Shown: positions 4,472 through 50,466 of the stretch, one piece after another | How positions within the stretch are numbered: position 1 is the first letter of the stretch | How the letters are laid out: every line of letters starts with the position of its first letter | Source of the DNA: a virus | Taxonomy: Duplodnaviria; Heunggongvirae; Uroviricota; Caudoviricetes | Length of the DNA: 64,000 bases | Reading direction: 5' to 3' (one strand) | IMG/VR virus record: IMGVR_UViG_3300029713_000003 | Coordinates: 17,710-81,709 of that record | Position numbers and translations under genes: made by a program | Notes under the pieces: generated by a model | Database searches by the model: none | What the model saw: the letters and a program-made list of their open reading frames with translations, nothing else | Told to the model about the DNA's origin: nothing

Positions 4472-4484
4472 CTTCCTTCACTCC

Positions 4485-14600: not shown

Positions 14601-15873
14601 TAGTAATTGCTTCCGCACTTTTATTTGTTGCAGTCAATGCCTGGTTAGCATTTGTTTTCATCTTAATCAGTTCATCAACGACTCCACTGACAGATTCTGC
14701 TGCCTCATGCATTGCCCCAGCAAAATTCTTGGTATTTTCAACTTGTGTAGTAGTTAGCGTGTTGTTTTTTAGAGCCGAGAGTACATCATTCAGTTGCTCT
14801 GCTTTTGACTTGGTTGTATTCAGCGCTTTGTCAACTTGACCAGTAACTTTTGAGGCGTCACTTCCTTTGACAATCGCAGCGGAGATTTGACTGCCGATAG
14901 AAAGAATATTCTGCTTAATATCTTCAAGATGTTCACTAATTGATCGAAATGTCACAAGGTCATCTGAATTTACCAGATTGCCATTCTTGTATTTTATTCC
15001 AGAAACTTCTCTGAAAGCGTTTGCAAGATAACCAACAGCGCTTGAGAGATTTGCAAGCCGCTGATCATCAGGCAATGCTTTTGTTATATCCACGCCGCCT
15101 GCCGCGTCTCTTGCTGCAATAGCCTTCTCAGCGACTACATCAAGAGACTTTGCAAGTTTGCTGAACGCGCTTCCATCAACCGATCCATCAAACTCTGCCA
15201 GTTTGCCAATAGCATTCACAAGCGTAGTGATCTTCCGGTCAACATTTGTCAGTCCGTCCATGGCGTCAACGAAATCTCGTACCTGCTCGGCGAGGGGTGA
15301 TAGGTCTATCACACTCCCTTCGCTGTCCTTACCCATTCCTGCAAGCACGCTGTTCAGCTTGCTTAGATCTATGGTGGCAATGTTCTTAAGTGCAGTCGCA
15401 TAATCACGGAGAGCAGAAGATGCCTTTTGAACATCGTCGCTCTTAAAGGCTTTTAGAAAGTCTTCACTCTGAATGAGCGCACTGAACTTCTTAATGCTAT
15501 TCTGTAAATCAGCTAACTGATCTTGCACTTCAGTTAATTTAACCTTGTTTACGTCAGCCATGGAGTCTGCCATCTTCTCCATATAGGAATCAATACTACC
15601 TACGATCTTGCCAACGTTTGTATCAAGGCTCTGCAAATTCCGCGCTACCTGAGAAAGATCAATCGTGTTCGTAATCTTGCCAATCTCAGTTTGAATGGTT
15701 GTGGCTGCCTGCACAACACGATTCGCCAACGAAGAAAATTCATTCTTCACCTGTGCAAAGTCAGCAGCACTGTTCACATTGTCAACCGTCTGCTGAATTG
15801 CCTTGGCTCCTTTTTGAATAGAGCGCAGGCTCAGCTCTATGCTGGCTGACAAAATATTGCTTTCATTTGCCAT
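5650..15873 (-). CDS. Tail tape measure protein, giant (3407 aa)
   Basis: Single 10.2-kb ORF. Has long coiled-coil-like Q/A/K/E-rich N-terminal region. The central block (...FGLDFKHLGAYIATVSETTRQDAASIGTAFNTIIARWHSIKKTGY...) is typical of the TP901-family TMP core. Hydrophobic segments (VLVFSAAVGSAVLLVSKLVSVV..., VALVVGTLAAITAGVVTLVGAY) and Gly/Ser-rich linkers are present. Position between the chaperone genes and Dit/Tal fits a TMP. Confidence 0.8.
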   Translation of the reverse strand: MANESNILSASIELSLRSIQKGAKAIQQTVDNVNSAADFAQVKNEFSSLANRVVQAATTIQTEIGKITNTIDLSQVARNLQSLDTNVGKIVGSIDSYMEKMADSMADVNKVKLTEVQDQLADLQNSIKKFSALIQSEDFLKAFKSDDVQKASSALRDYATALKNIATIDLSKLNSVLAGMGKDSEGSVIDLSPLAEQVRDFVDAMDGLTNVDRKITTLVNAIGKLAEFDGSVDGSAFSKLAKSLDVVAEKAIAARDAAGGVDITKALPDDQRLANLSSAVGYLANAFREVSGIKYKNGNLVNSDDLVTFRSISEHLEDIKQNILSIGSQISAAIVKGSDASKVTGQVDKALNTTKSKAEQLNDVLSALKNNTLTTTQVENTKNFAGAMHEAAESVSGVVDELIKMKTNANQALTATNKSAEAITNAQNKTKDASAEDFIGDTSELEKAIGTIIKGLATVQNGSNKAKITVGRDIAAIAAALKTLSDEKQLDKFAQKLNGLSDGQVEQLTESFKKLTKEMTDVGNAVTNVFVGKTVSDINKSKQEVISFIDALEGSRNNIDAFIMADPTDATAGLVNFAEELEKIGTLITHIFTDYESYEAALNDFNIDVKGQATFAEHIRKLSTETTTATINVEDFKNALQDVNVSENALNRVVAQTSGSFSASIKEMFSTDPAAAFIQDTNKYISKFRDLSQTSLTKANGFFTGFQNSGDMKQFAVNLQAVAQTLAAFDTKKLSELVAALHDLFAVKNEETGFSKIESSLTDLQKTAEKLEEIKTALGATDGLTLADSMSTKLSESMTANLRDGLNGIAQAISSMGEAITHLDPERLRVVMDTISQLLNSNQNNTQGEHLLSVIKENINSSGTNISNIGAQAEASGEQVNQLENRITRLHNLQVTYGRDGSVTGAVATGWNEANRSITQYYNTAAQITSQVIRGTANQKSAVDEIVSLYKSAGTLISQSFSAKDEDLAADLYDQAIEKINQAERAMDGLDDKRRNSAAILQAQTDATNAYVKAQAAAVQAYRDTTDKIAQKEADTEYKQSLAYEQDQIKGCIKALNEYHSLQKTQAKFKTDSPEFATLQEQINRAKASYDSYSDTVRNSVAVQNAWTEAEQKTSDALDNLSAKQQSANQSSNLSALISKTAEYWDLMTKAETATTTVDKDEYTRRAQNLDAEIKDILKKNSALAQEQSYIDAATEAQKRYAAAVNSNSVATRQKEYNQLLEEQWSYEKRRLTLENQSGKGTGAQRAARQAEINRLRQEEERIAQQVNSMDKTGLDTQTKLKQIQEQRVRLENDLSLKTGEVSEKLLNQIVQMAKTMIVARALRSIWTNAISYATEYFDKLNEIQIVTMQTDSQIEALSQSYRNLAKELQISSTDIATAAVEFWRQGLDEEETMSRTKWASMYAKITAQSFDEAATQITASTNSMGVSAQEVVDLFTYLGDASASSGSEIGTAMQKAAAAAAAFGLDFKHLGAYIATVSETTRQDAASIGTAFNTIIARWHSIKKTGYTTNDDGTTTGANDISKALGDVLGINLFENGQWKDMAAVLDEIASKWNGLDAAQKSYIATTMAGTKQQNVFLALMGDMAKGAENGSRMYELLAGAMESAGTVTEKYEVWLDSVAAAQGNLNVSLERLYTTILDNETLKSFYTTMASLADNFASGMETGFGQVTKNVLVFSAAVGSAVLLVSKLVSVVKALRAAKGIGDIAKILTGGKVALVVGTLAAITAGVVTLVGAYRNAHDEAQKLQELQKKQADITTNYSSLSKLQSEYTKLISITNRTQEEEAQLKEVWKKLQTFSPTLAMALSNVSGGMENQEGVTKALREELDRLAQSYNGVVTAANKLSIKQIMDAYRTDQKKYNSYDIINDPALSANIGRLYDSKSGQSAISTIGQLIPNMNDEHWWGKMSVTQIVNEITQAQYGVVENVRQALYSDKGLIEGTNLATKFVSQFVTAYKEALDASENDLDLGQFIIDAVQSSQNDEAADEAAKTYAQQLFESMFDSMKPMDWDNMDFGSQALFESYFENMFTDGTIGTFIGIPNDLKQAVRDYQAIRKEADDLGVDIGKTIYGNIDTNNRQVLEWTEENLEAFKDAYESWGYTVDDLKGSISTVMGTSADYDGIEIAFTPILQTPEGAKLLDANTVDEYIWGLIDKANEDGSWTNEELFALDAEGLEIDGQIIKNLLADIGDEAIKTGEAMHYVGKDGALAQAFDELETLSVQYGVSIKDAVVGSAQDAGVTYIDQLVEAMKQGDETINGVMLKLLQGASEYSEKMLQTEWGANWIKALNAVNSKYGTDEFDSAYASLEVAYNALKEKYGDDFFVQLPSKESFGGVASGLADIGDAADDASTDVEKLSSKLAKVLANQTSDNELKALQNSNFKSWIDQLRSFINEDGTVDGSALFAWMQGLDSSNLEKFLEVFPQFTAYLKEIAELGDNGGLSETGENLEGFSDAVANASDQMLVALNNYRESHSGVTDEDGKSLLSEFSNLMSIGEDGTLDGLDAYIEKFASASAEEQKWMLDNSDAILKFSTAWERYKKALDTGDTDAASSAMKDMKDAFSDLNREVADTHFDDVTKQIEKMTEATDSSAAVLSAYDKVYTMADNYAEAAQEYENLAKKYSSADQILYSDVSKIASVLSMSPQAVLQAWDQIPAMLQQYAQDGLSALDLLNQEAFFNITGTSSVDFSDLENGIVIVDNMAQEMLDTLIKTGQFEVETIPVNSVAKVWDSTVRDFVSRQVNGTYKVLKPTGNNPFSSGSHRKASTKSSGGGGGSGSKNNSSSKKDSSRTEEERWVEQVDNTVKRITDRMSQLNTIMNIWDSEGYFTAEIKALGQVNEMLEDQDKILREKIAEAQARLPALIDQFNSTTPDTEAYDAILSRVNTIQDAITDWTQKLTENEASIVSNKQKIDDLNDSIRQLKLDLENEILEAIEDREQRIDDMLQARIDMEETILDILKAQAEDAEQAILDAIDAQIDALNKEKDAVSELLDARKEQADQEDKLAQLQELQAKYSRIVADPTRAKDAQDILDQIDDLRDEIAWDQAENESEAQQKSIEQQISSLEDYRDYIEQYYEDLLNNPRNFIDQVNSILKMSQEDILTWLEQNSTDYKNSTDNTRTDMENGWKETLDTMNGIIHDHWQEVQDIISQGDEAVIAFLKENSNKYREASKLQQEAYIEGWQDMFDKIRKAYEDMQTNLLDNSKFINNTKWGGSDDDGSSSGSSGGGSSGGGSGGKKKYSATYPAIGSAKGGTLKGYDTEEAAIAATKSKINSICRQLSGSSSSAIGQWARTFYDKITVKKYARGGIADFTGPIQIDGTKANPERILSATQTKLFEGLVASLEQMNRVRVAPMKYNGEAVTNNKSYGYNFGDINIKVERLDSDRDIEDLADKVKESIVESMTRGRAVGGIAL

Positions 15874-28302: not shown

Positions 28303-29508
28303 TCAACTCTCTGTTCCTAAATCAATTGGGTAAACAACTTGGCGTCCATACTTGGGTGACATCACAAAGGCGGTTGCACCAGCACGTCCGCCATAACCTT
28401 TGCTCTGCGCGTACTTATCCATGCCGCACAGAGACGGCACTCGAATAATTACAGAATTTCCATCACTGGTATATCCAGATGGGAATTCCTGCTCTTTATG
28501 CAAATGACCACAAACAAAATAATCTACACGCTCGCCATATAGGTTCACCGTATTTCGAGCAATCTGGTCGATACTCTTCTCTCCATCACCATGAAGCAGC
28601 ACAAAGTTATATCCGCAAATGGTGATCTTGGACATTTGCCCGCAATCGCGCATCACGATCACGTTGTCATTGTCCTTGAGCCGTTCATCTAAAAACCAGA
28701 AGACGATCTTCTCCAGATTCTCATCCGGGAACTCACGTGCTTTTGATTTGAAAGGGCGAACTTCAGAATGGTTGCCCGTTACACCCATAACACCAACCGT
28801 GGCATAACCAGATAACTGATTGATCCATCTCGATAAGTACTCAGAAAGGTGAATGACAGATTCAACCAATCCATATTCCAATTTCATCAGCTGGCTCTGG
28901 CGAAGCATTCCATCCACCAAATCTCCCATAAAGAAGAGGTTTACAAATCCGATTTCTTCACGCTTAATGATCCAGATAATATCATCAAGAAGTTTTTGCA
29001 TGCGAGTTTCAAAAACTTCACTGTTGTAGCGGTTCAGGCATTCTCCATATAAACCGCGAACGTCAATGTCCGCTCCGTAATGAAAGTCGCCCATGGCAAC
29101 TACAAGCTCTCGTGCTCTATGCTCCTTGTCTTGCGGCATCGGCTGAATTTCGATTTCCGGCAAACTGGGCAACTGCTGTACCGCCTGCTGCACTGTCTCG
29201 CGCAATAACTGGCTCCGCGATTCGGAGCGATAAGCGGCGTTCAGCTTATTTCCCAAGTCCCGCATCTTCTGGCGTTCCATGTACTCGGTGCCAGACTCAT
29301 CGGAGTTACCGCAGAAAGACATTCCAGCATCGCTTGCCAGCTTTACGCCAACTCCGGCCTTCCGAAGTGTTTCCGCATTTACCGTCAGATCAAACTCCTC
29401 ACAGATTTCTGCCCAGTCTTTATCGGACGCACCGTTCTTTTTGTCAATCATTTCGCCTACTAGATTTCGTTTCGCTTCTGATGGAAGCTCGTCAATCGTA
29501 TAACCCAT
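28303..29508 (-). CDS. Calcineurin-like metallophosphoesterase with ~120-aa N-terminal extension
   Basis: Motifs GDFHYG, GDLVDG, GNHS and GHLH, which are the metallophosphatase signatures. First gene of the late arm after the tRNA array. Confidence 0.65.
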   Translation of the reverse strand: MGYTIDELPSEAKRNLVGEMIDKKNGASDKDWAEICEEFDLTVNAETLRKAGVGVKLASDAGMSFCGNSDESGTEYMERQKMRDLGNKLNAAYRSESRSQLLRETVQQAVQQLPSLPEIEIQPMPQDKEHRARELVVAMGDFHYGADIDVRGLYGECLNRYNSEVFETRMQKLLDDIIWIIKREEIGFVNLFFMGDLVDGMLRQSQLMKLEYGLVESVIHLSEYLSRWINQLSGYATVGVMGVTGNHSEVRPFKSKAREFPDENLEKIVFWFLDERLKDNDNVIVMRDCGQMSKITICGYNFVLLHGDGEKSIDQIARNTVNLYGERVDYFVCGHLHKEQEFPSGYTSDGNSVIIRVPSLCGMDKYAQSKGYGGRAGATAFVMSPKYGRQVVYPIDLGTES

Positions 29509-29537
29509 CCTGTCACATCCTTCGTCGCCTTATCAAC

Positions 29538-29613
29538 TGGTGCCAGCGGTCGGACTTGAACCGACAAATCAACGGGTTAGATCCGTTTGCATATGCCATT
29601 CTGCTACACTGGC
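29538..29613 (-). tRNA. tRNA with anticodon CUA (candidate amber suppressor; isotype undetermined, possibly Gln-derived)
   Basis: 76-nt cloverleaf: acceptor GCCAGTG/CGCTGGC, discriminator A, CCA encoded. Anticodon stem AACGG/CCGTT is perfect. Anticodon loop is AUCUAAC with U33, C34-U35-A36 and A37. T arm is GTCGG-TTCAAGT-CCGAC. Confidence 0.6.
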
Positions 29614-29617
29614 AAAT

Positions 29618-29692
29618 TGGAGCCGGACACGGGACTCGAACCCGCAACCTGCTGATTACAAGTCAGCTGCTCTACCATTGAGCTAATCCGGC
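29618..29692 (-). tRNA. tRNA-Thr (anticodon TGT)
   Basis: Cloverleaf with D stem GCTC/GAGC, anticodon loop CTTGTAA and T loop TTCGAGT. Confidence 0.7.
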
Positions 29693-29807
29693 ACATGGCG
29701 TACTTGATATTTGGTGACGAAGACAAGTACACGAACTACTCCGGGAGACTGCGGGCGATCAACTCCGCTTGCTGGTTTTACAGTCAAGGTGGCTTCCTTC
29801 ACCTTTC

Positions 29808-29891
29808 TGGTGCGGACAAAGAGACTTGAACTCTTACGAGATAACTCACCAGATCCTAAGTCTGGCGCGTCTGCCATTCCGCCACGCCCGC
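29808..29891 (-). tRNA. tRNA-Leu (anticodon TAG), class II
   Basis: 84 nt with a long variable arm; anticodon loop CTTAGGA; T arm AAGAG-TTCAAGT-CTCTT. Confidence 0.65.
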
Positions 29892-29904
29892 ATAATCTTT
29901 ACAA

Positions 29905-29980
29905 TGGCAGGGCCTAAAGGATTCGAACCTTTATCTTCTCGTTTTGGAGACGAGTGTTTTACCAGTTATACTAAAACCCC
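29905..29980 (-). tRNA. tRNA-Trp (anticodon CCA)
   Basis: Anticodon stem CTCGT/ACGAG, loop CTCCAAA, T loop TTCGAAT. Confidence 0.7.
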
Positions 29981-30087
29981 ATATGGCGGTTTGAAAATTT
30001 CGGAGGTGCCGCCAATCCATCATCCGAACGTAAGCAAGGATTGCCACGACAATCCCAGAAACCTTTTCTACACTAGTAGATAGGCAA

Positions 30088-30164
30088 TGGTGCGCCATCT
30101 GAGGTTCGAACTCAGGGCTCCGTGATTAAAAGTCACGTGCTCATACCAACTGAGCTAATGGCGC
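30088..30164 (-). tRNA. tRNA-Lys (anticodon TTT)
   Basis: Acceptor GCGCCAT/ATGGCGC is perfect; loop CTTTTAA; T loop TTCGAAC. Confidence 0.7.
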
Positions 30165-30246
30165 ATAAATGGCTGGTTGCCCCTCCCACCAACCAATATC
30201 CTGATCTCCATGGGACACATCACCCAATCAGGCACCCACATCGGTT

Positions 30247-30717
30247 TTAGTTCAGAATGATTTTCTCTTTCTGCGATTGCTCTGCATAATCCTGAAACAT
30301 GATATTACCGGCGAGTAATTCGTCATAGCTGATACAAGAAGTGCAGCCGTTCCGAACCATCAGGGACTGTTCCTGAACACCGGGCATCACAACAAGCAGA
30401 ATCGGCTTTTCTTTTGCAAAGGCATAGCCGGCTTCCCAAGCAGTACCGCAAGTTCCATTCCTGCCAAAGTCAAACACGACCACTGTATCAGATTGGTCGA
30501 TTGCAAGAACATCTTCGGTAAACACGCATCGCGCCCATTCGCTCTGCGGCATGTTCCATGCGTTGGGAATCTTTAGCTTTCTAGGATTGTAGATGTTTGC
30601 CTGACGACCGAGCTTGTCCTGAACATATTTTTCAAGAACCAAGATGGCGTCGTCAATTTGACCGCGCTTGCTGCACGACAGTCCGACAACCGGCGCGGCA
30701 ATATAAAAATCAAACAT
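30247..30717 (-). CDS. Nucleoside 2-deoxyribosyltransferase-like protein, about 156 aa
   Basis: Strong RBS AGGAGGG-N5-ATG at the internal Met; the track ORF extends upstream across tRNA-Tyr. Motifs FYIAAP ... FDFGRNGTCGTAWEAGYAFAKEKPILLVV resemble the NDT family signature. Family assignment is from memory. Confidence 0.5.
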   Translation of the reverse strand: MFDFYIAAPVVGLSCSKRGQIDDAILVLEKYVQDKLGRQANIYNPRKLKIPNAWNMPQSEWARCVFTEDVLAIDQSDTVVVFDFGRNGTCGTAWEAGYAFAKEKPILLVVMPGVQEQSLMVRNGCTSCISYDELLAGNIMFQDYAEQSQKEKIILN

Positions 30718-30739
30718 AAACCCTCCTGATAAAACAAAA

Positions 30740-30825
30740 TGGTGGGAGAGGAAGGACTCGAACCTTCGGCGTTTCAGTCGTGGGGGATTTACAGTCCCTT
30801 GCCTTCGCCACTGGGCTACTCTCCC
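30740..30825 (-). tRNA. tRNA-Tyr (anticodon GTA), class II
   Basis: 86 nt with a long variable arm; loop CTGTAAA; T arm GAAGG-TTCGAGT-CCTTC; CCA encoded. Confidence 0.7.
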
Positions 30826-31086
30826 ATAATGGTACTCCATCCCGGTAACGATCCGGGTAGTCCTGCGTGAGAGGCAGGCGGCTCAACCTTTTGCCTTATG
30901 GAGCATAAAATTGTAGTCTGTCCATGTATAGCCGTCTATCACATCGCCTCGTTTAATGACGGTCGCAGGATCAGATGTCCCGCACTGGCCGAGTCACGCA
31001 GCAAGCTCGCTTCTAAAAGGCACTCGACTAATTCTCCGCTTGCCCGGATGCCGGCGTCACCATCGCCGGAGGGGACAGACTCAATT

Positions 31087-31161
31087 TGGTACTCCGTGAG
31101 GGAATCGAACCCTCGACAGCAGCTTGAAAGGCTGCCCGCTTGGCCACTTGCGTAACGGAGC
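31087..31161 (-). tRNA. tRNA-Glu (anticodon TTC)
   Basis: Anticodon stem GCAGC/GCTGC, loop CTTTCAA, T arm GAGGG-TTCGATT-CCCTC. Confidence 0.65.
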
Positions 31162-31165
31162 ATAA

Positions 31166-31240
31166 TGGCGGTCTATCCGGGAGTTGAACCCGGCTCTTAG
31201 CCGTGACAGGGCTACATCCTTACCGATGAACGAATAGACC
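31166..31240 (-). tRNA. tRNA-Asp (anticodon GTC)
   Basis: Acceptor GGTCTAT/ATAGACC; loop CTGTCAC. Confidence 0.7.
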
Positions 31241-31245
31241 ATAAT

Positions 31246-31321
31246 TGGTGGGACAGAAGAGATTCGAACTCTTAGTCGGACGGGTTTGAGCCGTCTGCGT
31301 CTGCCGTTGCACCACTGTCCC
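31246..31321 (-). tRNA. Class-I (short variable arm) tRNA with anticodon CAA, an atypical combination
   Basis: 76 nt. Acceptor GGGACAG/CTGTCCC and anticodon stem GACGG/CCGTC are both perfect. Loop is CTCAAAC with a 5-nt variable loop, T arm AAGAG-TTCGAAT-CTCTT and CCA encoded. Confidence 0.55.
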
Positions 31322-31323
31322 AA

Positions 31324-31398
31324 TGGTGGAGGCACCGGGAATCGAACCCGGATTTACGGCTTGCAAAGCCGTCACACGAACCATTATGTTATGCCCCC
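31324..31398 (-). tRNA. tRNA-Ala (anticodon TGC)
   Basis: G3:U70 pair present in the acceptor stem; loop TTTGCAA. Confidence 0.7.
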
Positions 31399-31408
31399 AA
31401 TCGGGGTA

Positions 31409-31484
31409 TGGTGGGCTATGCAGGGATTGAACCTACGCGCAGCCGTTTATGAGACGGCAGCTCTACCACTGAGCTAATAGCCCG
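31409..31484 (-). tRNA. tRNA-Met/fMet/Ile2 (anticodon CAT)
   Basis: D stem GCTC/GAGC; loop CTCATAA; T loop TTCAATC. Confidence 0.65.
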
Positions 31485-31520
31485 TAAAATCCGGAGCGGA
31501 TGAACCGCCCCAGAAAAAAA

Positions 31521-32453
31521 TTACTCAATACTTCCAATGTCTACGATGGGAGTGCTGCCGCCGGAAACCTTCGGTACAGAACCGTCCCACTTTTCGTACT
31601 TGATCTTTTCAATCAGCTCAGGGGTAAGCGAAGCAGCAATCTTCTTGTTCGCGTCGGCTTCCGCTTCTGCCGCAATACGCAATGCTTCAGCGTCCGCCTG
31701 CGCAGCGATCAGCTTTTTGTCCGCCTCAATCTGAGCAACTTCCTTGTCTCGTTCTGCGTTGATTTGCGCAATGTTCCGATCCTTCTCTGCTTTGATACGA
31801 TCTGTTTCTGCCTCAATCTCCGCCAGCTCTTTATCCTGCTGAGCATTGACCTTCTTCTGGATAGCCGCTGCGGTTTCCTCGTCCACAGAAATATCTGTAA
31901 AGTTTACCGTATCAATGATGATGCCGTACTTATCGAACTTCTCTCGCAGATAAACGTCCAACTCCGCATTGATCTTGGTGCGCTTGTCGCCAAAGATATC
32001 TGTCACCGGGTAGTTCGCAGAAACTTCCTGCGTCCATGCAATGATCTTCGGTTTGATAAAGGTTTCCTTGATCTGCTCGCCGCTCTTGCCCTTGAACTGA
32101 ACAAAGGTATCGGACACTCGGTCGGCGTCGAAACGATAAGAGAACTCAAGGTTCACACGAACCGTCTTGCCATCCGATGTCGGAATCACAAAGCTCTCAT
32201 CCTTGGGAGAATCACCTTTAGAGTCAGTGGTCAAATAGCTCTGCTCAATGCCGATAGAATAGAGCGTCACATTCTTCGTCGGTGAGATCACATGCCAGCC
32301 TTGTGAAAGCGTATCGCCTTCAATACCGCCGTTCATGTTGTACACAACGCCGACATAGCCGGCTGGAACACGTTCCGTGCAGAAACCAACGCACACCAGA
32401 ATGACGACCATCACAACGCCCAGAACAATCGCACCTACAGTACCTTTTCTCAT
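31521..32453 (-). CDS. SPFH/band-7 (prohibitin/HflK-like) membrane protein, 310 aa
   Basis: N-terminal transmembrane helix, then an SPFH-like core (GYVGVVYNMNGG...) and a long charged coiled-coil C-terminus. Confidence 0.6.
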   Translation of the reverse strand: MRKGTVGAIVLGVVMVVILVCVGFCTERVPAGYVGVVYNMNGGIEGDTLSQGWHVISPTKNVTLYSIGIEQSYLTTDSKGDSPKDESFVIPTSDGKTVRVNLEFSYRFDADRVSDTFVQFKGKSGEQIKETFIKPKIIAWTQEVSANYPVTDIFGDKRTKINAELDVYLREKFDKYGIIIDTVNFTDISVDEETAAAIQKKVNAQQDKELAEIEAETDRIKAEKDRNIAQINAERDKEVAQIEADKKLIAAQADAEALRIAAEAEADANKKIAASLTPELIEKIKYEKWDGSVPKVSGGSTPIVDIGSIE

Positions 32454-32614
32454 ACTTCCTTCTGCGCTCCTTCGTCCTTATCTTCTTCTAGGATTTTTTC
32501 TTTTGCGTCGCGATAAATACGTTGGAAGAGTATACCGAGCGGTTGAAACAGTGCTGAAGCACAAAACCAGATTCCGACAGCCGCTACCACAACCAGAAAA
32601 TAAAACACCGGCAT
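32450..32614 (-). CDS. Small membrane protein (NfeD-like partner candidate) upstream of, and overlapping, the SPFH gene
   Basis: Internal start with strong RBS AAGGAGGAAG. Hydrophobic MPVFYFLVVVAAVGIWF... The track ORF extends across tRNA-Asn. Confidence 0.4.
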   Translation of the reverse strand: MPVFYFLVVVAAVGIWFCASALFQPLGILFQRIYRDAKEKILEEDKDEGAQKEV

Positions 32615-32643
32615 ATAATCTTCCTCCTTGTTTATCACACGCA

Positions 32644-32720
32644 TGGCTGGCCGGGTGGGACTTGAACCCACGACCCTCCGCTTAACGGGCGGACGCTCTA
32701 ACCAACTGAGCTACCGGTCA
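32644..32720 (-). tRNA. tRNA-Asn (anticodon GTT) with C33 (atypical)
   Basis: D stem GCTC/GAGC; anticodon stem TCCGC/GCGGA; loop CCGTTAA; T arm GTGGG-TTCAAGT-CCCAC. Confidence 0.55.
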
Positions 32721-33524
32721 ATATAAAAGGGAAAGCCTGAGACTTACTTGAGCTCTCCATGCTCTCTTCTCCTGTCGTTGGAAACAGCCAGTCACACACC
32801 GGGTTAGGGTGTAGAGAGCAACCACACTGGTTTTGAGAAAGCCAGCAAAATCTTGCAATGGAGTATTATAGATTTTCTTTCAGCACATCGCTCCTTGCGG
32901 GATGCAGAGCTTGCGGGCTCTTACGGTTGCACCTACTTGTACTTTCTTACATGTCGCCTTGCGAGCTTCATGCACGTTCATATTCCAGAACGATAAGTGG
33001 TTTGTTTCTCCAAAGCCACATACACTTTTGCTTCTTCATTTCTCAATAACATTAGAAATTCATGCTGCTTTTTCAAAAGCTAAGTGTATGTTCTGGATGA
33101 CGGGGTATGTGCTTGACCATTCGTGCCTTTTGAACACGACCCAGCCGCCGCCACCCTGCGCGTCTTGCTATCGACGCCCTTCCTGTGCGGCACCTTTCTT
33201 TCGATATGAGATGCCCGTCCACAGGATCCGTACAGCACTCACCCTTGCGAAGCTCGCACCATACGTCGGTTCATGCATTCTACTCATTTCTGAGATTAGG
33301 TTTCTAGCGCTTTTCCCATAGCGCCCATCCGACCATAGTCATCAGCAGTTGCCCTCTGACCGCAGGCAGGATGTATGCAGATACCGGTTTTCCGTTGCAG
33401 TGTCCAAGACACTCGCACAAGGTACAACCCTTGTGCTTTATACGTATCACTACGCTTATCTAAGGAGCCGAAACCACCCCGTCCCTTGTTTCATTTCAGG
33501 CTGAAACAGGGAATAAAAGAACCA

Positions 33525-33600
33525 TGGTAGCAGACTTGGGAGTCGAACCCAATCCTCAAGGAGCATGAATCCCGCGACTTAACCGCTTGTCCTGTCTGCT
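33525..33600 (-). tRNA. tRNA-like with CAT anticodon; degenerate (imperfect anticodon stem, G37), possible pseudo-tRNA
   Basis: 76 nt. Acceptor AGCAGAC/GTCTGCT is perfect and the T arm TTGGG-TTCGACT-CCCAA is good. The anticodon stem has a mismatch and a wobble pair. Confidence 0.4.
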
Positions 33601-33703
33601 GTAAACTAGAGTAGCCACCCATCTCAACTACTCCCATGTGCCTTCGCTTTATACTGATGTAATCCGATGCAGATTGGCTACTGCTTCAGGCACTCCACGT
33701 TAT

Positions 33704-33958
33704 TCACTCGCAAATTTTCCAATCTGCAGCCAACATATCTGCTTGAGACGCAAGCCAGCCCATCTGTATGCCGCCGGTTCCAACAAACGCAATCGCCTGA
33801 TTCCCAATCGCGTCATGTTCGCAGTTGACAATTTCGTTCCGGCTGTTGATGTAGCTGATGCAGGTTGCTAGTTCAATATACTGGTTTTTACCGTTCCACC
33901 CGCTGCGCTGCACACGTGCTCCGCACTTCATTGCCTCAATCGCTTCTCCGAATTTCAT
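33704..33958 (-). CDS. DUF2829 / Tad2-like small protein (candidate anti-Thoeris sponge), 84 aa
   Basis: MKFGEAIEAMKCGARVQRSGWNGK ... SQADMLAADWKI matches my recollection of the DUF2829 N- and C-terminal signatures. RBS GAAGGAG; sits inside the tRNA array. Confidence 0.5.
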   Translation of the reverse strand: MKFGEAIEAMKCGARVQRSGWNGKNQYIELATCISYINSRNEIVNCEHDAIGNQAIAFVGTGGIQMGWLASQADMLAADWKICE

Positions 33959-33979
33959 CTCAAGACTCCTTCATTTCTC

Positions 33980-34053
33980 TGGTCGAAAACGTCGGACTCG
34001 AACCGCTACTCGTCGTCCCAGGCGACGCGTGTTACCATTACACCACGTTCTCG
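33980..34053 (-). tRNA. tRNA-Pro-like (anticodon TGG) with C33 and a weak T stem; possibly degenerate
   Basis: Anticodon stem CGTCG/CGACG is perfect; loop CCTGGGA; acceptor pairs. The T stem has only 3 bp. Confidence 0.4.
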
Positions 34054-34235
34054 TTATCCGGTGAGATTTGGATCATACCAAATCAAACACCCGTCTCTTC
34101 AGCTCTTCCATATTGCCATCCGCCTCATAGAGACCGGCAATCCTCGCAGCGCTGAAGAACATCTTCACCATCTTCAAAAACATGATCTTCAACCTTTTGT
34201 TTTTTATTATTTGTGCAGGTCTGGGCACCGCACAT

Positions 34236-34309
34236 TGGAGTGCGATATGGGGATTGAACCCACGATTTCAGCTTGGAAGGCTGACGTGTTACCTCTACAC
34301 TAATCGCAC
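34236..34309 (-). tRNA. tRNA-Gly (anticodon TCC)
   Basis: Acceptor GTGCGAT/ATCGCAC; loop CTTCCAA; discriminator U. Confidence 0.7.
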
Positions 34310-34313
34310 ATCA

Positions 34314-34387
34314 TGGCTACCGAGGCTGGAGTTGAACCAGCAATACAGGAGTCAAAGTCCCGTGCCTTGCCGTTTGGCTACTCGGCA
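34314..34387 (-). tRNA. tRNA-Gln (anticodon TTG)
   Basis: Loop CTTTGAC; discriminator G; T arm GCTGG-TTCAACT-CCAGC. Confidence 0.65.
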
Positions 34388-34509
34388 ATGATTGGTAAAA
34401 AAGATGCCTTTCTCATTCACTCCGCAAAGTGCGAGCTTTCACCAAGCCGTCTTACCATGTATGGCAGACCTGTCGCCGCTATGGCTGCCGTAGCAGTACC
34501 GGAGGGCGC

Positions 34510-34600
34510 TGGCGGAGACGGTGTGATTCGAACACACGGTAGAAAATTTCCCTACGACGGTTTAGCAAACCGCTGCCATAAACCACTCGGCCACGTCTCC
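34510..34600 (-). tRNA. tRNA-Ser (anticodon GCT), class II
   Basis: 91 nt with a long variable arm; loop TTGCTAA. Confidence 0.65.
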
Positions 34601-34856
34601 AGAAACAGAGTGCAGTTTTTCAGCTCTTAATGTCTGTTGCCCTGCACCGTGGCGTCCTCTCATTATGGACTTATCGGCGTTGCTCTCCGTCGTGTCGCAA
34701 TTGCTATCGGTTTGTGTTCCGTCCGGCTCTGCGCTTTTAAGCGCAACTACGGAAGGGAGCGACCCTGCACATTGAGGGGAAACGGGTTTCGAACACCCCT
34801 CTAAACCCAGGGTTCCGGACACCTGGTAAATCATTGTCACCCGTTATTTTTTATAG

Positions 34857-34923
34857 ACCAGCCGCCCGGACTTGAACCGGGGTCGCACGCTGTACAGCCG
34901 TGTGCAGCCACCTGACCAGCTGG
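34857..34923 (-). tRNA. Short tRNA-like element (67 nt, reduced D arm, possible GTA anticodon); likely pseudo or atypical
   Basis: Good T arm CCCGG-TTCAAGT-CCGGG and a pairing acceptor stem, but the D loop is only 4 nt and the anticodon stem is imperfect. Confidence 0.3.
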
Positions 34924-34927
34924 ATCA

Positions 34928-35012
34928 TGGTGCCGACAGCGGGACTTGAACCCGCACGGGATAACCCATGGGATTTTAAGTCCCAAACGTCTGCCAATTC
35001 CGTCATGTCGGC
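34928..35012 (-). tRNA. tRNA-Leu (anticodon TAA), class II
   Basis: 85 nt; anticodon stem TGGGA/TCCCA; loop CTTAAAA; long variable arm; CCA encoded. Confidence 0.7.
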
Positions 35013-35114
35013 ATAGTGCTTGTTCTCGGACAGCGGCAGCTCCTGTCCCGTACCCGAAGGCCAAGCAAAGCCTGCATCTTTAGCAGTTCTACCTTGAGGG
35101 AAAGATGCTGAAAT

Positions 35115-35188
35115 CGGATCGTGCCGGATTCGAACCGACGCCCTTCGGTTGCGCTGACCAACGCTCTGACCAGCTGAGCTAACCACCC
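35115..35188 (-). tRNA. tRNA-like (Arg-like D arm; anticodon loop CAGCGCA, i.e. GCG with A33 and C37); probably degenerate
   Basis: D arm TAGCTCAGCTGGTCAGAGC and T arm GTCGG-TTCGAAT-CCGGC are good. Acceptor has 6 of 7 pairs; the anticodon loop is non-canonical. Confidence 0.35.
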
Positions 35189-35242
35189 GAAATCAGCTAT
35201 AGACTTGAAGAGCCCCTCTTGCTCTTCGCACGGTACGTTCTT

Positions 35243-35330
35243 TGGCGGGGCAGGTAGGATTTGAACCCACGGACGGTTGCCCGTCAAGAGTTTTCAAGAC
35301 TCCCGCCTTAAGCCACTCGGCCACTGCCCC
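35243..35330 (-). tRNA. tRNA-Ser (anticodon TGA), class II
   Basis: 88 nt; loop CTTGAAA; long variable arm; acceptor GGGGCAG/CTGCCCC. Confidence 0.7.
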
Positions 35331-35358
35331 GAAGGAATCCATGAGAGGATTCCGAAAA

Positions 35359-36204
35359 TCATTGACACTCGATAGCGTCATCAGGAATGCGTTCTAGTTC
35401 AGCGTCATAGAACTGAACGGCTCCGGACGCAGCAACCGCGCAGTAAACTGTGTCCATGTCGTAGAGTTCGCCAGCTTTTGTTTTCTTGGGACTGTATTTG
35501 TCGTACTGCTCAGGAATGATCCTGTATCGGTTTCCAAGAAACGAGAAAGCGTTCTCTGTATCCACAACCGCAGAGACGAGCTCCTTAACGCCGTTGTCGC
35601 GGCGGATGCTCATGCTCCGGTCTAGTTTTGTTCGGCTCGCTTTTTTCTTTCGCGGCTTCACGCCGTATCTTTTTTCAGCCTTGTTGTCCGCATGCTCCAT
35701 CATACCGCGAAAGCAATCATCTTCTGCTTTCATCAGCATATCATTTCTGTTCACATGTACGCCACTATATACAGTGTCTTCCACAAAGGATGGGCAAGAC
35801 GATACAGGAATTTCTCGCTTCCCATTCATAATCTGTTTGTAGTCGGTCACTATATCGTCAGCGCTGCCCATGATTAAAAAGTATCCTAAACTGGAAAGGA
35901 ACATCTTGACTTTGTTCTCTGGAGAATACGGATTAGAACTTGTAATGCCTACCCAATTCTTCTCACAATACCAAGCCCATTCGTTCAGAAGGTCTTTGAC
36001 AATCTGAATGCGTTCATCCAGACAAGACGCCTTCACCTTCTTTACCGTGCCATTGGGCTGGAGGATGTTATATCCCGTTGCCAATACGCTATCCCTTCCC
36101 TCAGTATATATTAAACAAGATCGCTTTTTGAAATCAAAGGCTATATGGAACCGCGCTTCTTGAAAAACGCTTGCATGGTTTAGAGACTGCAGTTGGCAGC
36201 GCAT
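35359..36204 (-). CDS. Hypothetical protein (start uncertain; track ORF begins with TTG at 36249)
   Basis: Long ORF between the tRNA array and the small late-arm genes; no recognisable motifs. Confidence 0.35.
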   Translation of the reverse strand: MRCQLQSLNHASVFQEARFHIAFDFKKRSCLIYTEGRDSVLATGYNILQPNGTVKKVKASCLDERIQIVKDLLNEWAWYCEKNWVGITSSNPYSPENKVKMFLSSLGYFLIMGSADDIVTDYKQIMNGKREIPVSSCPSFVEDTVYSGVHVNRNDMLMKAEDDCFRGMMEHADNKAEKRYGVKPRKKKASRTKLDRSMSIRRDNGVKELVSAVVDTENAFSFLGNRYRIIPEQYDKYSPKKTKAGELYDMDTVYCAVAASGAVQFYDAELERIPDDAIECQ

Positions 36205-37899: not shown

Positions 37900-38215
37900 C
37901 TCCAGTCGTTTAATAGAGTAATAATTAAATACAATATATAGAGTTTACTTTATACTGTTAACTCAATATATCATATTTGTTTATTTACATACTTAAATCA
38001 ATAGACAAATAAATATTTAATCAATATATTGTACAGGTTAGTTTTAGTATTTAGTATCTATTGAAACCTTACTCACATAAATATTAACTATTTATTGTTT
38101 TACTTATCTTATTCAATCTTACTTATCTTACTAAATCAATCTATTGTATTACTCAGTTAAATCAATTTACTATAAGCTGTTGTTATTGTTGTTGTTGATG
38201 TTGCCGTTACACCTA
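37900..38215. repeat. AT-rich block with short direct repeats (TAAATCAAT three times, CTTATCTTA-like, TGTTGTTATTGTTGTTGTTGATGTTG)
   Basis: About 75% AT and devoid of ORFs. Lies between the leftward sigma-type promoter copy and the first leftward gene. Confidence 0.5.
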
Positions 38216-38249
38216 TAATTGGGGCGATTTTTCAAAAAACGTTCCGGGT
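38212..38249 (-). promoter_or_regulatory. Copy 1 (leftward-facing) of bipartite motif ACCCGGAAC-N14-CGCCCCAATTATA; putative promoter for the phage-encoded sigma factor driving the late arm
   Basis: Same two boxes and spacing as the copies at 44123 and 61352; oriented toward the minus-strand genes. Confidence 0.45.
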
Positions 38250-38540
38250 AAAATAAAACTTTTTGAAAAAACTTTTGCAGGACAATATAAGAGTATGTAC
38301 CTCTTTTTTGAGTTTCTACTGGAGGACTCTGGCTGGAGGTAAAGCATAGAACAAACGTAATCCATACACCTGTAATACATAGCACATTACTTGAGCGGTT
38401 TCTGGATTAGAATGCTATATAAGAATAACGATAGTGTCATAACCGCCATAGAAATTGTGTGCGGTTTTGCTTCGATTGGCGTCGAACTCAAAAAGAGAGT
38501 TTCATCTAGTTATATGACAGGCATATGGTTTCTAAAAGTA

Positions 38541-38549
38541 TGCTATACT
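38541..38549 (+). promoter_or_regulatory. Extended -10 promoter candidate TGcTATACT (rightward). A similar TGcTATATA lies at 38413-38421.
   Basis: Matches the TGnTATAAT extended -10 consensus. The same TGCTATAAT type recurs at 56171. Confidence 0.35.
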
Positions 38550-38622
38550 TTTTCAACGTAAAATACAGTTATGTTAAATTGATTTTATTTCTTTTTCGGG
38601 TAAATCGCCGTTTTCGTGTTAC

Positions 38623-39046
38623 CTTGTCAATGTCGAAAGCGACAAGCCGAAAGGCAAGTAGCCGACGATATATCCCCTGCACCTTGACAACCGCATAGCA
38701 GTAGCCCCTGCAACAAAAAAGGGCATGATATGCAACGCATAGCAAGTTTGTACTATGCTTGTTGTGTTAAGTGGCTGATGTTCAAATAGAGCAAATGACG
38801 CCCACAATGGCTACACCCTTGACAGGGCAACCCGTCTAAATCGCGGGGATAAGTGTAGAGCTTTGCAGACGCAACGAACCATAGGCAAATACTACCTTGT
38901 GTTATGTATCAAGTGGGCATTGCGTAGAACCTTGTTCCCCTTTGGGGAAAGTGGGTATTACTGTGTGGCTATATGCCACTGTGATAAAGCTAAAACAATG
39001 CGGCAGTATACCCTACGCCCACACTGTCAAAGTAGGTCTTGACAGC
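38623..39046. promoter_or_regulatory. Operator-like inverted repeats containing TTGACA half-sites (CTTGTC-N12-GACAAG near 38623; CTGTCAA-N8-TTGACAG near 39023), plus extra CCTTGACA copies at about 38681 and 38816
   Basis: Seen directly in the divergent leader upstream of the first rightward gene. Confidence 0.35.
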
Positions 39047-49152: not shown

Positions 49153-49355
49153 CAATTACAAAGGCATTCAATGATATCCGCCAAGTCAAAGGGTGGAAGA
49201 TGAATGAAATCATTAAAACCAGAGAGCCGCGTGGTTTGTTCTGGTATTTTGACGAGCAGGCTCATGTGTACGTCGGTTGTGACAACCAGTATGGCGATGC
49301 ATGGACGGAAGAATTTGCCACGCGGTCTAATTGTATTGCATGGCTGAACCAATAA
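49149..49355 (+). CDS. Hypothetical protein, 68 aa (TTG start; alternative ATG at about 49200)
   Basis: ORF with overlapping start. Confidence 0.35.
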   Translation: MTITKAFNDIRQVKGWKMNEIIKTREPRGLFWYFDEQAHVYVGCDNQYGDAWTEEFATRSNCIAWLNQ

Positions 49356-49369
49356 AGGAGGAAAGATTT

Positions 49370-50073
49370 ATGAGTCATTTTCTGGTGGGCGTTTTCTGTA
49401 CGGATATTGAAGACGTGGACAACCTGCTGGCTCCTTATGATGAGCAGAATGAGGACTACTTCGAGTTCCAAGAAGACGCAAGCGAAGATCTGGAAACCCT
49501 GCGCAAAAACTATGAAGAAGATGAAGAGAAGGATAACATGACCTTTGAAGAGTGGTTGAAGGAATATAACGGCTATGTCTTGCAGGATGGTAAGATCGGT
49601 TATAGGTCTAATCCGAACGCCAAATGGGATTGGTATGACGCAGATGGCGGTCGGTGGAGGAATGCGGGTTTGTATCGCCTCAAACCCGGTGAAAAGCCGG
49701 ACGAGTGGAACCGCGTTAAAGTAAAGCAGATGGATTTCTCCCAAATCAGGAGGAATATCGGCAGGCAGAGATATTTTGGGATGAATATGTAGAAGGCAAA
49801 GCACCTGAAAAATATCCGCATGCGTTTTTGGAGCCGGAATATTACCGCAGAACTTACGGCACCAAGGAGTTTTATGTCAGCTATAACGCCGATGTCACCC
49901 GCCCTTACGCTTTCGTCACACCGGATGGCGAATGGCATGAACAGGGACAGATGGGATGGTTTGGCATCAGCACGGCCTCTCAGGAATCTATTGCACAGAA
50001 TGCCGACGATTGGCAGGAAGCTATTCAGGATTATCAAGGGCTGTATCTGGTCTATGTGGATTGCCACATCTAA
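49370..50073 (+). CDS. Hypothetical acidic protein apparently split across two frames (0 frame to 49792, then -1 frame 49720-50073). Either a frameshifted gene or a site of recoding.
   Basis: RBS AAAGGAGG at 49370. The -1 frame is open from 49720 and reads like real protein (EEYRQAEIFWDEYVEGKAPEKYPHAFLEPEYY...) with no start codon or RBS of its own. The 0 frame ends in TAG only 16 codons later. Confidence 0.4.
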
Positions 50074-50085
50074 GGAGGGTTCATC

Positions 50086-50466
50086 ATGCTGAAGGACTGC
50101 GTTCCCGCTCATCCGGAAATTCATACGGAATATTATCTCGTCTTCGACGATGGGCATGGCAATGGGTTCTGGTTTCCATGCAACCATAAAGGTGCGTTTG
50201 CAAAACCGCTGAGTCCATGCGCACAGCGGAACTACGATGACTGTCTGCAAAATCCGCATCGGTTCGTCCGTTATAACGAGGTCGTCAAGGAGGTGCGTCA
50301 TTTTACTGTCCCGGCGAGTGGCAAGTGTCGGTGCGGCAATACCGTGGAACTGATCGATGAATACTGCGGCGCTTCTCAATGCCATCAGTGTGGACAGTGG
50401 TATAACCTTTTTGGAGAAGAACTTCTTCCGCCCAGTGAGTGGTGTGAAAGTTGCAATGATTACTAA
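50086..50466 (+). CDS. Cys-rich protein, 126 aa (several CxxC motifs)
   Basis: RBS TAAGGAGGG. Confidence 0.5.
   Translation: MLKDCVPAHPEIHTEYYLVFDDGHGNGFWFPCNHKGAFAKPLSPCAQRNYDDCLQNPHRFVRYNEVVKEVRHFTVPASGKCRCGNTVELIDEYCGASQCHQCGQWYNLFGEELLPPSEWCESCNDY

Follow-up and report, generated by a model that had tools for sequence, protein, structure and literature searches.

A tRNA-rich accessory island with a GOLLD-class RNA and an amber-suppressor tRNA at the head of the late arm of an uncultured phage

Clusters of tRNA genes are well known from large phages. In the tRNA regions of T5 and T4, and in the arrays of jumbo phages, Herelleviridae and mycobacteriophages, the genes are co-oriented, with one gene per anticodon, spacers of 4-100 nt, interspersed small open reading frames (ORFs) and accessory genes, and a content that varies among close relatives; the proposed roles are codon supply and the replacement of tRNAs cut by defence nucleases (PMC10264068, PMC11464382, PMC11555353). 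GOLLD RNAs (RF02032; Weinberg et al. 2009) are found in phages and prophages near such islands, sometimes with tRNAs in their linker, and the env-38 copy, which lies downstream of a Met-tRNA, forms a 14-mer cage in cryo-electron microscopy (PMC12286853); GOLLD also occurs inside a mycobacterial tRNA cluster with an internal pseudo-tRNA (PMC6582537). Suppressor tRNAs are often carried by recoded phages (10.1101/2021.08.26.457843; PMC10879173), and a standard-code phage in which a stop codon is rare and which then acquires a suppressor is the postulated intermediate (10.1101/2021.08.26.457843). Here we describe a tRNA array at positions 29538-35330 of a 64-kb stretch (the window) of the Caudoviricetes record IMGVR_UViG_3300029713_000003, which contains all three elements. 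Each of these is already known; the interest lies in their combination and in the comparative material.

The 20 tRNA genes that ARAGORN calls in the window share the minus strand and all fall within 29538-35330. Rfam recovers 19 of them at its gathering threshold (42.5-69.8 bits versus a cut-off of 29) and likewise detects none elsewhere in the window; the sole ARAGORN call that fails is a Glu(CUC)-like paralogue at 30830-30904, which has no Rfam match even at E <= 1. A 21st tRNA emerges in the sensitive Rfam mode (33528-33600, 43.4 bits, E 1e-7) and from ARAGORN at 80% stringency, the latter extending it to 33525-33600 with an encoded CCA, and a degenerate relic is the 22nd tRNA-type element. 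The presence of some 21 tRNA-type elements in this interval is far above chance. The preliminary description of this DNA had counted about 21 minus-strand tRNA or tRNA-like elements and had named a covariance-model search as the check; the count stands, its limits are exact, and the majority of the elements pass. We consider the region to be a co-transcribed accessory translation island that sustains late translation and counters host defences, and put the probability of this reading at roughly three in four.

The position of the array is in line with such a role. Maps of ORFs and GC skew reveal two divergent arms, with the skew switching sign at 38-39 kb. The plus-strand arm runs from 38.4 kb to 64 kb, and the minus-strand (late) arm starts near 38.3 kb and reaches down to position 1, in the order small genes, island, exonuclease, terminase, portal, protease/scaffold, capsid and two giant proteins of 3407 and 2017 amino acids. 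Thus, the island forms the head of the late arm and is co-oriented with the late genes. By length it consists of 29% tRNA, 32% coding sequence, 13% GOLLD RNA and 26% other spacer. Promoter-like and terminator-like sites within it are no more frequent than in shuffled sequence, and convincing internal terminators were not found. Because of the shared late strand, the tight spacing, the location upstream of the exonuclease-terminase-portal-capsid operon and the lack of convincing terminators, we infer that the island is transcribed as long precursors, which would be cut by host RNase P and the enzymes that mature tRNA 3' ends.

An altogether different origin, namely a captured host tRNA cluster or an assembly chimera without any role in the phage, might be suspected from the fact that tRNA clusters with GOLLD exist on bacterial chromosomes too (PMC6582537) and that several elements are degenerate. 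The array nevertheless has phage genes on the same strand on both sides, among them the metallophosphoesterase gene that the preliminary description had placed beside it at the head of the late arm, and its anticodon set is non-redundant, neither rRNA nor the usual surroundings of a bacterial operon being found with it. Moreover, four independent viral contigs carry the array, among them L002 (92 kb) and the diverged L036 (102 kb), and across the exonuclease region three IMG/VR contigs (L001-L003) are 95-98% identical to the window and carry the same tRNAs. On basis of this synteny in independent assemblies the host-cluster or chimera origin was rejected and has next to no credibility, in agreement with the earlier view that the set is not a host cluster.

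The phage itself is uncultured and about 92 kb in size. A megablast search for similarity to cultured phages at the DNA level gave no match. The closest counterparts of its terminase and capsid proteins reach no more than 31-38% identity and all belong to phages of Bacillota (such as Clostridium phage c-st, Geobacillus E3 and the SPbeta group), and on this similarity the host is probably a member of the Bacillota. A scan of genome contigs with the GOLLD motif, made in search of the host, matched 17 very diverse genomes, none of which has the GOLLD subfamily of the window.

The canonical part of the array comprises 18 tRNA genes for 14 amino acids with 18 different anticodons, mostly with U34 or G34. 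Among the 22 tRNA-type elements, 20 have an encoded CCA end; the two that lack it are the Arg-like element and the relic. Canonical tRNAs for Arg, Cys, His, Phe and Val were not found, as had been noted before; the earlier statement that Ile is missing as well cannot be upheld, since two elements have a CAU anticodon and the tools used do not separate Met from Ile2 (lysidine). The codon and amino-acid usage was compared within the phage, late versus early genes. Two codons with cognate phage tRNAs are enriched in the late genes, CTA (odds ratio 3.25, p = 4e-5) and ACA (odds ratio 2.0, p = 1e-5), and CCA, TAC and GAG follow a weaker trend in the same direction (p = 0.03-0.04); the bias of TCA and AAC falls short of p = 0.05, and the remaining cognate codons show none. 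At the level of amino acids, the late proteins are relatively rich in those for which the phage has a tRNA (one-sided Mann-Whitney p = 0.04) and depleted in Cys, His, Arg and Phe, for which it has none. These biases lend weak support to a role in the supply of late translation: the tRNAs would keep the synthesis of late proteins going when the tRNAs of the host are poorly matched, run short or come under attack, whether by supply or through replacement of cleaved host tRNAs (PMC10264068, PMC11464382, PMC11555353).

Replacement could also be the whole story. According to this alternative the array is a counter-defence island, the tRNAs of which substitute for host tRNAs cut by anticodon nucleases such as PrrC, PARIS/AriB, retron-Eco7/PtuAB or Schlafen-like ones rather than tune codon usage, and Tad2, possibly together with the nucleoside 2-deoxyribosyltransferase-like (NDT) and SPFH proteins, represents further anti-defence genes collected at a hot spot. 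There are precedents in the tRNA-Lys of T5, which acts against PARIS (PMC11464382), in a tRNA-Tyr that acts against a retron (PMC11555353) and in the general hypothesis (PMC10264068). Indeed, the set includes isoacceptors that are known targets (Lys-UUU, Tyr-GUA, Asn, Asp, Glu, Gln and Met), and the island shows fast gain, loss and mosaicism among genomes that are 97% identical, a pattern typical of loci for defence and counter-defence. In addition, a Tad2-like gene lies within the array. Its product matches PF11195 with 75.8 bits versus a cut-off of 25, residues 1-82 aligning to positions 1-72 of the 73 of the profile. Like the Tad2 anti-Thoeris sponges it is a single domain of 84 amino acids that spans the whole of PF11195, a likeness at the level of the family sequence, and we regard it as a candidate anti-Thoeris sponge that may blunt Thoeris-type immunity. 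Yet the anticodon loop of the Lys-UUU tRNA (CUUUUAA) shows no obvious escape change, the bias of late-gene codons and amino acids towards the phage set is not predicted by a purely defensive role, and the evidence comes from the phage side. We therefore hold this alternative as a possible, though doubtful, account of the array.

Another component of the island is a large RNA. The preliminary description had reported non-coding gaps between the genes, and spacers do exist; the largest of these gaps, 33480-32734, had gone unrecognized as a GOLLD-class RNA of about 750 nt. In the sensitive mode of Rfam, 32734-33156 matches RF02032 over the whole model (1-416) with 92.2 bits and E 1e-23. The layout is that of the class, about 800 nt with two domains: a variable 5' domain (~33480-33095), an A/U-rich variable linker (~33093-33031) and a conserved 3' domain (33031-32734). 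A motif scan of IMG/VR yielded 48 loci, 28 of which have blastn homology to the window; the homology to 16 other phage GOLLD copies extends over 33480-32762 in the longest alignments, well past the Rfam model. From the alignment of these 17 phage sequences (A1) RNAalifold predicted 170 pairs. An independent count gave 168 pairs in 26 helices, of which 97.7% were paired versus 30-44% in slid controls, and compensatory changes in 111 of the 168 pairs versus 21-26 in the slid controls, values that were reached in 0 of 500 shuffles. In the 3' domain (helices 16-26) the pairing is 96-100%, and 40 of 65 pairs have compensatory changes. Covarying helices and homology together span 33480-32760 of the window.

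The resemblance to the described GOLLD RNAs extends to detail. With RF02032 the window copy shares the full-length match of the 3' domain, in which the motifs AAGCAAAAGU and GCUCGCAAGG and the long-range helix are present, as well as a less conserved, separate 5' domain, an A/U-rich linker, the encoding by a phage and the location in a tRNA island. Window-like copies with 85-93 bits are found in L007, L009, L022, L024, L039, L043 and L052, whereas the classical copies in the set reach 203-305 bits, and by its sequence the window RNA belongs to a sub-threshold GOLLD subfamily. A blastn search of the GOLLD region against cultured phages gave no match. In the classical copy of L008 (1923-2362, minus strand, 203 bits) a tRNA-like element (2206-2276) interrupts the linker and 13 tRNAs are packed around the RNA; in the window subfamily the tRNAs flank the RNA instead. 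More specifically, the window copy is preceded, 44 nt upstream, by a tRNA-like(CAU) element with a degenerate D arm and followed, 13 nt downstream, by tRNA-Asn. This bracket is conserved: the degenerate CAU element, with covarying stems, lies upstream of GOLLD in L007, L009, L036, L051, L052 and L054, and in many relatives a tRNA lies on the 3' side, usually tRNA-Asn and otherwise another one. The element upstream recalls the Met-type tRNA just upstream of env-38; the cage was seen for env-38, and the window copy is known from its sequence. Because the tRNA-like(CAU) and tRNA-Asn bracket it, the GOLLD RNA could be freed by the same tRNA processing, its 3' end being made by the RNase P cut at tRNA-Asn, and by homology with the solved GOLLD RNAs it might then self-assemble into an RNA cage. 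Between the tRNA-like(CAU) and the first GOLLD helix the window has a hairpin of about 10 bp (CCCUGUUUCA…UGAAACAAGGG, 33481-33524, minus strand) that is missing in the relatives of A1.

The close relatives also show how variable the island is. The 92-kb contig L002 (IMGVR_UViG_3300045988_157779), which is 97% identical to the window, has a deletion of 3044 nt that corresponds to window positions 33473-30430 (junction 5051/5052 in L002, 2-nt microhomology). The deleted segment holds GOLLD, Asn, the SPFH pair, Met(CAU), Ala, Leu-CAA, Asp, both Glu elements, Tyr and the 5' part of NDT. L002 also lacks the Tad2-like gene, its Gln-Gly-Pro segment has diverged to 80%, and it retains the tRNA-like(CAU) and the suppressor. 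In L036, the terminase and exonuclease of which are 77% and 59% identical to those of the window, the tRNA-like(CAU)-GOLLD pair stands at the head of the array, and Lys-Sup(CUA) directly precedes exonuclease, terminase and portal, the same position as in the window. These comparisons mark the island as a recombination hot spot. GOLLD and the suppressor, being kept in L036, are thus long-standing features of the lineage, and the cargo of the island turns over fast.

The last element of the array is a tRNA with the anticodon CUA, labelled 'Pyl' by ARAGORN, and its nature as an amber suppressor had been overlooked in the preliminary description. It has a canonical 7-nt anticodon loop (AUCUAAC, with U33 and A37), A73, a short variable loop and an encoded CCA, and it ends 29 nt upstream of the exonuclease start codon. 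Recoded gut phages (crAss-like, Lak, Agate/Jade; Borges, Peters, Kienbeck et al.) likewise have a CUA tRNA with a canonical loop before their late genes, and TAG stops are rare in them, as in the window; unlike the suppressors of these phages, the window tRNA(CUA) has an encoded CCA and is followed at once by a ribosome-binding site and a gene start. [quoted passage not shown] A canonical tRNA(CUA) directly upstream of the late operon and the absence of TAG as a stop are what such a module would show, and recoded phages often carry such tRNAs (10.1101/2021.08.26.457843; PMC10879173). In fact, none of the 58 confident genes ends in TAG (TAA 34, TGA 24; P = 0.006 versus the off-frame share of TAG), and the three TAG-ended cases among the 69 ORFs of at least 60 amino acids are not convincing.

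The genome itself, however, is not recoded. The coding density outside the island, determined in a strand-aware manner, is 0.904 with code 11, 0.915 with code 15 and 0.894 with code 4, so that code 15 adds 1.1 points against the 5-10 points or more, together with in-frame TAG, that the recoding papers use as criterion (10.1101/2021.08.26.457843; PMC10879173). No confident gene needs read-through of TAG, and the whole late arm is intact in the standard code, without in-frame TAG in the some 20 kb that continue past the window on the 92-kb contig; the portal, terminase and exonuclease of L036 have no in-frame TAG either. Apparent signals of TAG or TGA recoding in six-frame maps (codes 11, 15 and 4) were rejected as wrong-strand shadow ORFs, the strand-aware maps showing a dense standard code. 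The one sizeable TAG-terminated ORF, 49331-49792, was rejected as a read-through gene as well, being a frameshift artefact, the front half of a frameshifted gene. Thus, over the window and the rest of the late arm the phage uses the standard code, and the code-switch explanation is already largely refuted and very improbable.

As regards that frameshifted gene (49331-50088, plus strand), its N-terminal part ends at the TAG (49790) and its C-terminal part (…YAFVTPDGEWHEQGQMGWFG…CHI*) is read in a different frame as far as about 50088; the first ORF covers only half of the PHROG 10079 profile (344 positions), and the split could stem from an error in sequencing, from decay to a pseudogene or from programmed frameshifting. 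A further observation concerns composition: over the whole window TAG, CTA and CTAG occur at 0.42, 0.38 and 0.09 of expectation (23 CTAG sites in 64 kb), which suggests restriction-site avoidance or very-short-patch repair besides stop-codon effects.

What, then, is the suppressor for? With a standard code and no TAG stops the phage should be immune to amber read-through, and the suppressor, which is not for the phage's own genes, would therefore be either host-directed or a pre-adaptation to recoding. In the stronger form of this proposal the suppressor forces read-through of host TAG stops, thereby disturbing host proteins or defence, or it marks the first step of recoding after TAG has been purged. 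Borges et al. describe precisely such an intermediate, a standard-code relative that acquired a suppressor (10.1101/2021.08.26.457843), and the window would represent this stage. The canonical loop, the retention of the same position in relatives that are only 59-77% identical in protein, the invariance of the anticodon arm in the close relatives and the 0 of 58 TAG stops, which leave the phage unharmed, are all consistent with it. Composition, though, accounts for part of the absence of TAG stops, because TAG and CTAG are depleted genome-wide; furthermore, charging by any synthetase is an assumption, and a U6:U67 mismatch in L002 and L003 hints at a relaxed constraint on the acceptor stem in a tRNA that is otherwise conserved in L001-L003. 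We therefore put this stronger form forward as a tentative possibility.

As to the ancestry of the suppressor, a blastn search against cultured phages returned partial matches to tRNA-Leu and tRNA-Thr only, and a pattern scan with free anticodon (AACGGATNNNACCCGTTGA) returned only the three close relatives and non-tRNA chance matches. With the anticodon masked, its nearest neighbour among 143 phage tRNAs is tRNA-Leu(CAA), by a negligible margin over tRNA-Gln (identities of 0.62-0.68). Rfam models of the HDV (hepatitis delta virus) ribozyme family gave no match in 29000-36000 at E <= 1; the theta descriptor was not run.

One could go further and connect the RNA and the suppressor. In such a host-translation takeover unit the tRNA-like(CAU), GOLLD and tRNA-Asn would form one tRNA-processed unit, the cage would act on the tRNA or ribosome pool, and the suppressor would force read-through of host TAG codons. 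We think this unlikely. If it were true, the window and L002 would provide a direct handle on the function of GOLLD, a question since 2009.

Not all elements of the array look like working tRNAs. With the clusters of the T5/T4 type the window array shares the co-orientation, the spacers of 4-100 nt, one gene per anticodon, the interspersed small ORFs and accessory genes and the variable content. In contrast to them, it adds a GOLLD RNA, a Tad2 gene and an amber suppressor, outright structural aberrations are seen in 4 of the 22 tRNA-type elements ('Arg(GCG)', Glu(CUC), the CAU element at 33525-33600 and the relic), and a fifth, Leu(CAA), has the shape of class I. The 'Arg(GCG)' element has the anticodon loop CAGCGCA (A33, C37), one acceptor mismatch, discriminator G and an Ala-type G3:U70 pair, is the only element called by ARAGORN that has no encoded CCA, and is 98.7% conserved in L002; instead of decoding, it might serve as a decoy or in processing. 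The relic has a mascRNA-like Rfam match of 23 bits and is also called by ARAGORN at 80% stringency. The T arm of tRNA-Leu(CAA) matches that of the normal, long-arm tRNA-Leu(CAA) of L036. Class-I-shaped tRNAs of 76 nt with Leu anticodons (CAA and UAG) also occur in the unrelated phage array of L008 (633-708 and 777-852).

Several of these observations weigh against an accessory translation island that is maintained for late translation and counter-defence. Because 4 of the 22 elements are aberrant and Leu(CAA) has a short variable loop, some elements may be non-functional relics, and part of the island may be in decay and not under selection. Only a few codons carry the late-gene signal, several cognate codons being unbiased. 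The deletion in L002 shows that GOLLD, the deleted tRNAs, SPFH and NDT are dispensable in some settings at least. As to the RNA, its 92.2 bits lie below the 150 bits of the Rfam gathering score, and RNase Z is unlikely to generate the 5' end of GOLLD, because the upstream element encodes CCA. Finally, transcript structure and timing have been deduced from gene order.

The comparison nevertheless bears on several wider questions. The sub-threshold GOLLD subfamily would be missed by routine Rfam annotation despite very strong covariation over both domains, and its conserved tRNA brackets suggest how GOLLD is cut from a precursor. The near-isogenic genomes that differ in the presence of GOLLD, and a diverged genome that kept it, could serve to ask what GOLLD contributes. 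A standard-code lineage that keeps a suppressor and has no TAG stops bears on the start of recoding and on a host-directed role of suppressors. Moreover, the Tad2-like, possibly anti-Thoeris gene in the array supports the view of tRNA islands as hot spots for counter-defence cargo.

The features of the island and its downstream flank are listed in Table 1. The protein genes that had been proposed from the sequence (NDT-like, an SPFH pair and Tad2-like) agree with the Pfam and PHROGs searches.

Table 1. Features of the tRNA island and of its downstream flank, in the order of the late strand
Position	Strand	Feature	Evidence
35243..35330	-	tRNA-Ser(UGA), first in array, CCA encoded	ARAGORN; Rfam 56.1 bits
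35114..35189	-	tRNA-like element, ARAGORN label 'Arg(GCG)'	ARAGORN; Rfam 47.3 bits; sequence reading
34928..35012	-	tRNA-Leu(UAA), class II, CCA encoded	ARAGORN; Rfam 57.1 bits
34856..34923	-	degenerate tRNA-like relic: 7-bp acceptor stem and T arm, without proper D/anticodon arm, without CCA	
34510..34600	-	tRNA-Ser(GCU)	ARAGORN; Rfam 57.1 bits
34314..34387	-	tRNA-Gln(UUG)	ARAGORN; Rfam 59 bits
34236..34309	-	tRNA-Gly(UCC)	ARAGORN; Rfam 68 bits
34054..34235	-	spacer tRNA-Gly to tRNA-Pro, possible small ORF 34073-34228 (51 amino acids; 36-amino-acid version from internal ATG)	
33980..34053	-	tRNA-Pro(UGG)	ARAGORN; Rfam 42.5 bits
33704..33958	-	Tad2-like (DUF2829) protein, 84 amino acids	Pfam PF11195 E 3.9e-21; PHROG 1048/872
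33525..33600	-	tRNA-like(CAU), weak D stem, G37, encoded CCA, upstream companion of GOLLD	Rfam 43.4 bits; relaxed ARAGORN
32734..33480	-	GOLLD-class large structured RNA, ~750 nt	Rfam RF02032 and covariation
32644..32720	-	tRNA-Asn(GUU), 13 nt 3' of GOLLD end	ARAGORN; Rfam 63.2 bits
32450..32614	-	small predicted membrane protein, 54 amino acids from ATG behind AAGGAGGA site	ORF; overlaps SPFH start by 4 nt
31521..32453	-	SPFH/Band 7 protein, 310 amino acids	Pfam PF01145 E 5e-26; PHROG 200 E 4e-60
31409..31483	-	tRNA(CAU), not initiator (G1:C72); elongator Met or Ile2	ARAGORN; Rfam 65.1 bits
31324..31398	-	tRNA-Ala(UGC) with G3:U70	ARAGORN; Rfam 65.8 bits
31246..31321	-	tRNA-Leu(CAA), short 5-nt variable loop, class I shape	ARAGORN; Rfam 51.4 bits
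31166..31240	-	tRNA-Asp(GUC)	ARAGORN; Rfam 53.2 bits
31087..31161	-	tRNA-Glu(UUC)	ARAGORN; Rfam 61.5 bits
30830..30904	-	tRNA-Glu(CUC)-like paralogue, aberrant T loop AUCGUUA	ARAGORN only
30740..30825	-	tRNA-Tyr(GUA), class II	ARAGORN; Rfam 56 bits
30247..30717	-	nucleoside 2-deoxyribosyltransferase-like (NDT), 156 amino acids from MFDFY start	Pfam PF05014 Nuc_deoxyrib_tr E 4.5e-11; PHROG 7995
30088..30164	-	tRNA-Lys(UUU)	ARAGORN; Rfam 67.8 bits
29905..29980	-	tRNA-Trp(CCA)	ARAGORN; Rfam 60.6 bits
29808..29891	-	tRNA-Leu(UAG), class II	ARAGORN; Rfam 53.3 bits
29618..29692	-	tRNA-Thr(UGU)	ARAGORN; Rfam 69.8 bits
29538..29613	-	amber-suppressor tRNA(CUA), ARAGORN label 'Pyl', last in array	ARAGORN; Rfam 54.3 bits
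28303..29508	-	metallophosphoesterase/exonuclease gene, downstream flank, first of packaging/structural operon	Pfam PF00149/PF12850; PHROG 284 E 9e-55

The small membrane protein of the SPFH pair has no match in Pfam or PHROGs. Within the spacers of 29000-36000 no further Rfam families were found at E <= 1. The spacer between tRNA-Gly and tRNA-Pro is the only one with a markedly stable predicted fold (z = -3.5 for the minimum free energy; the others range from -0.3 to -1.8), and it lies in the segment that is most divergent from L002, with about 80% identity versus 97% in the flanks.

Outside the island, the divergent intergenic zone at 38000-39000, where the GC skew changes sign, is poor in GC (0.37), and the best promoter-like sites of either strand lie in or beside it (minus, 37961-37933; plus, 38002-38030); it is likely to be the origin and early-promoter region. 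In the late arm, the giant ORF of 3407 amino acids occupies 5650-15873 (minus strand), and 1-4477 (minus strand) encodes the first ~1490 amino acids of the ORF of 2017 amino acids that leaves the window and is complete in L055 (7025-13078).

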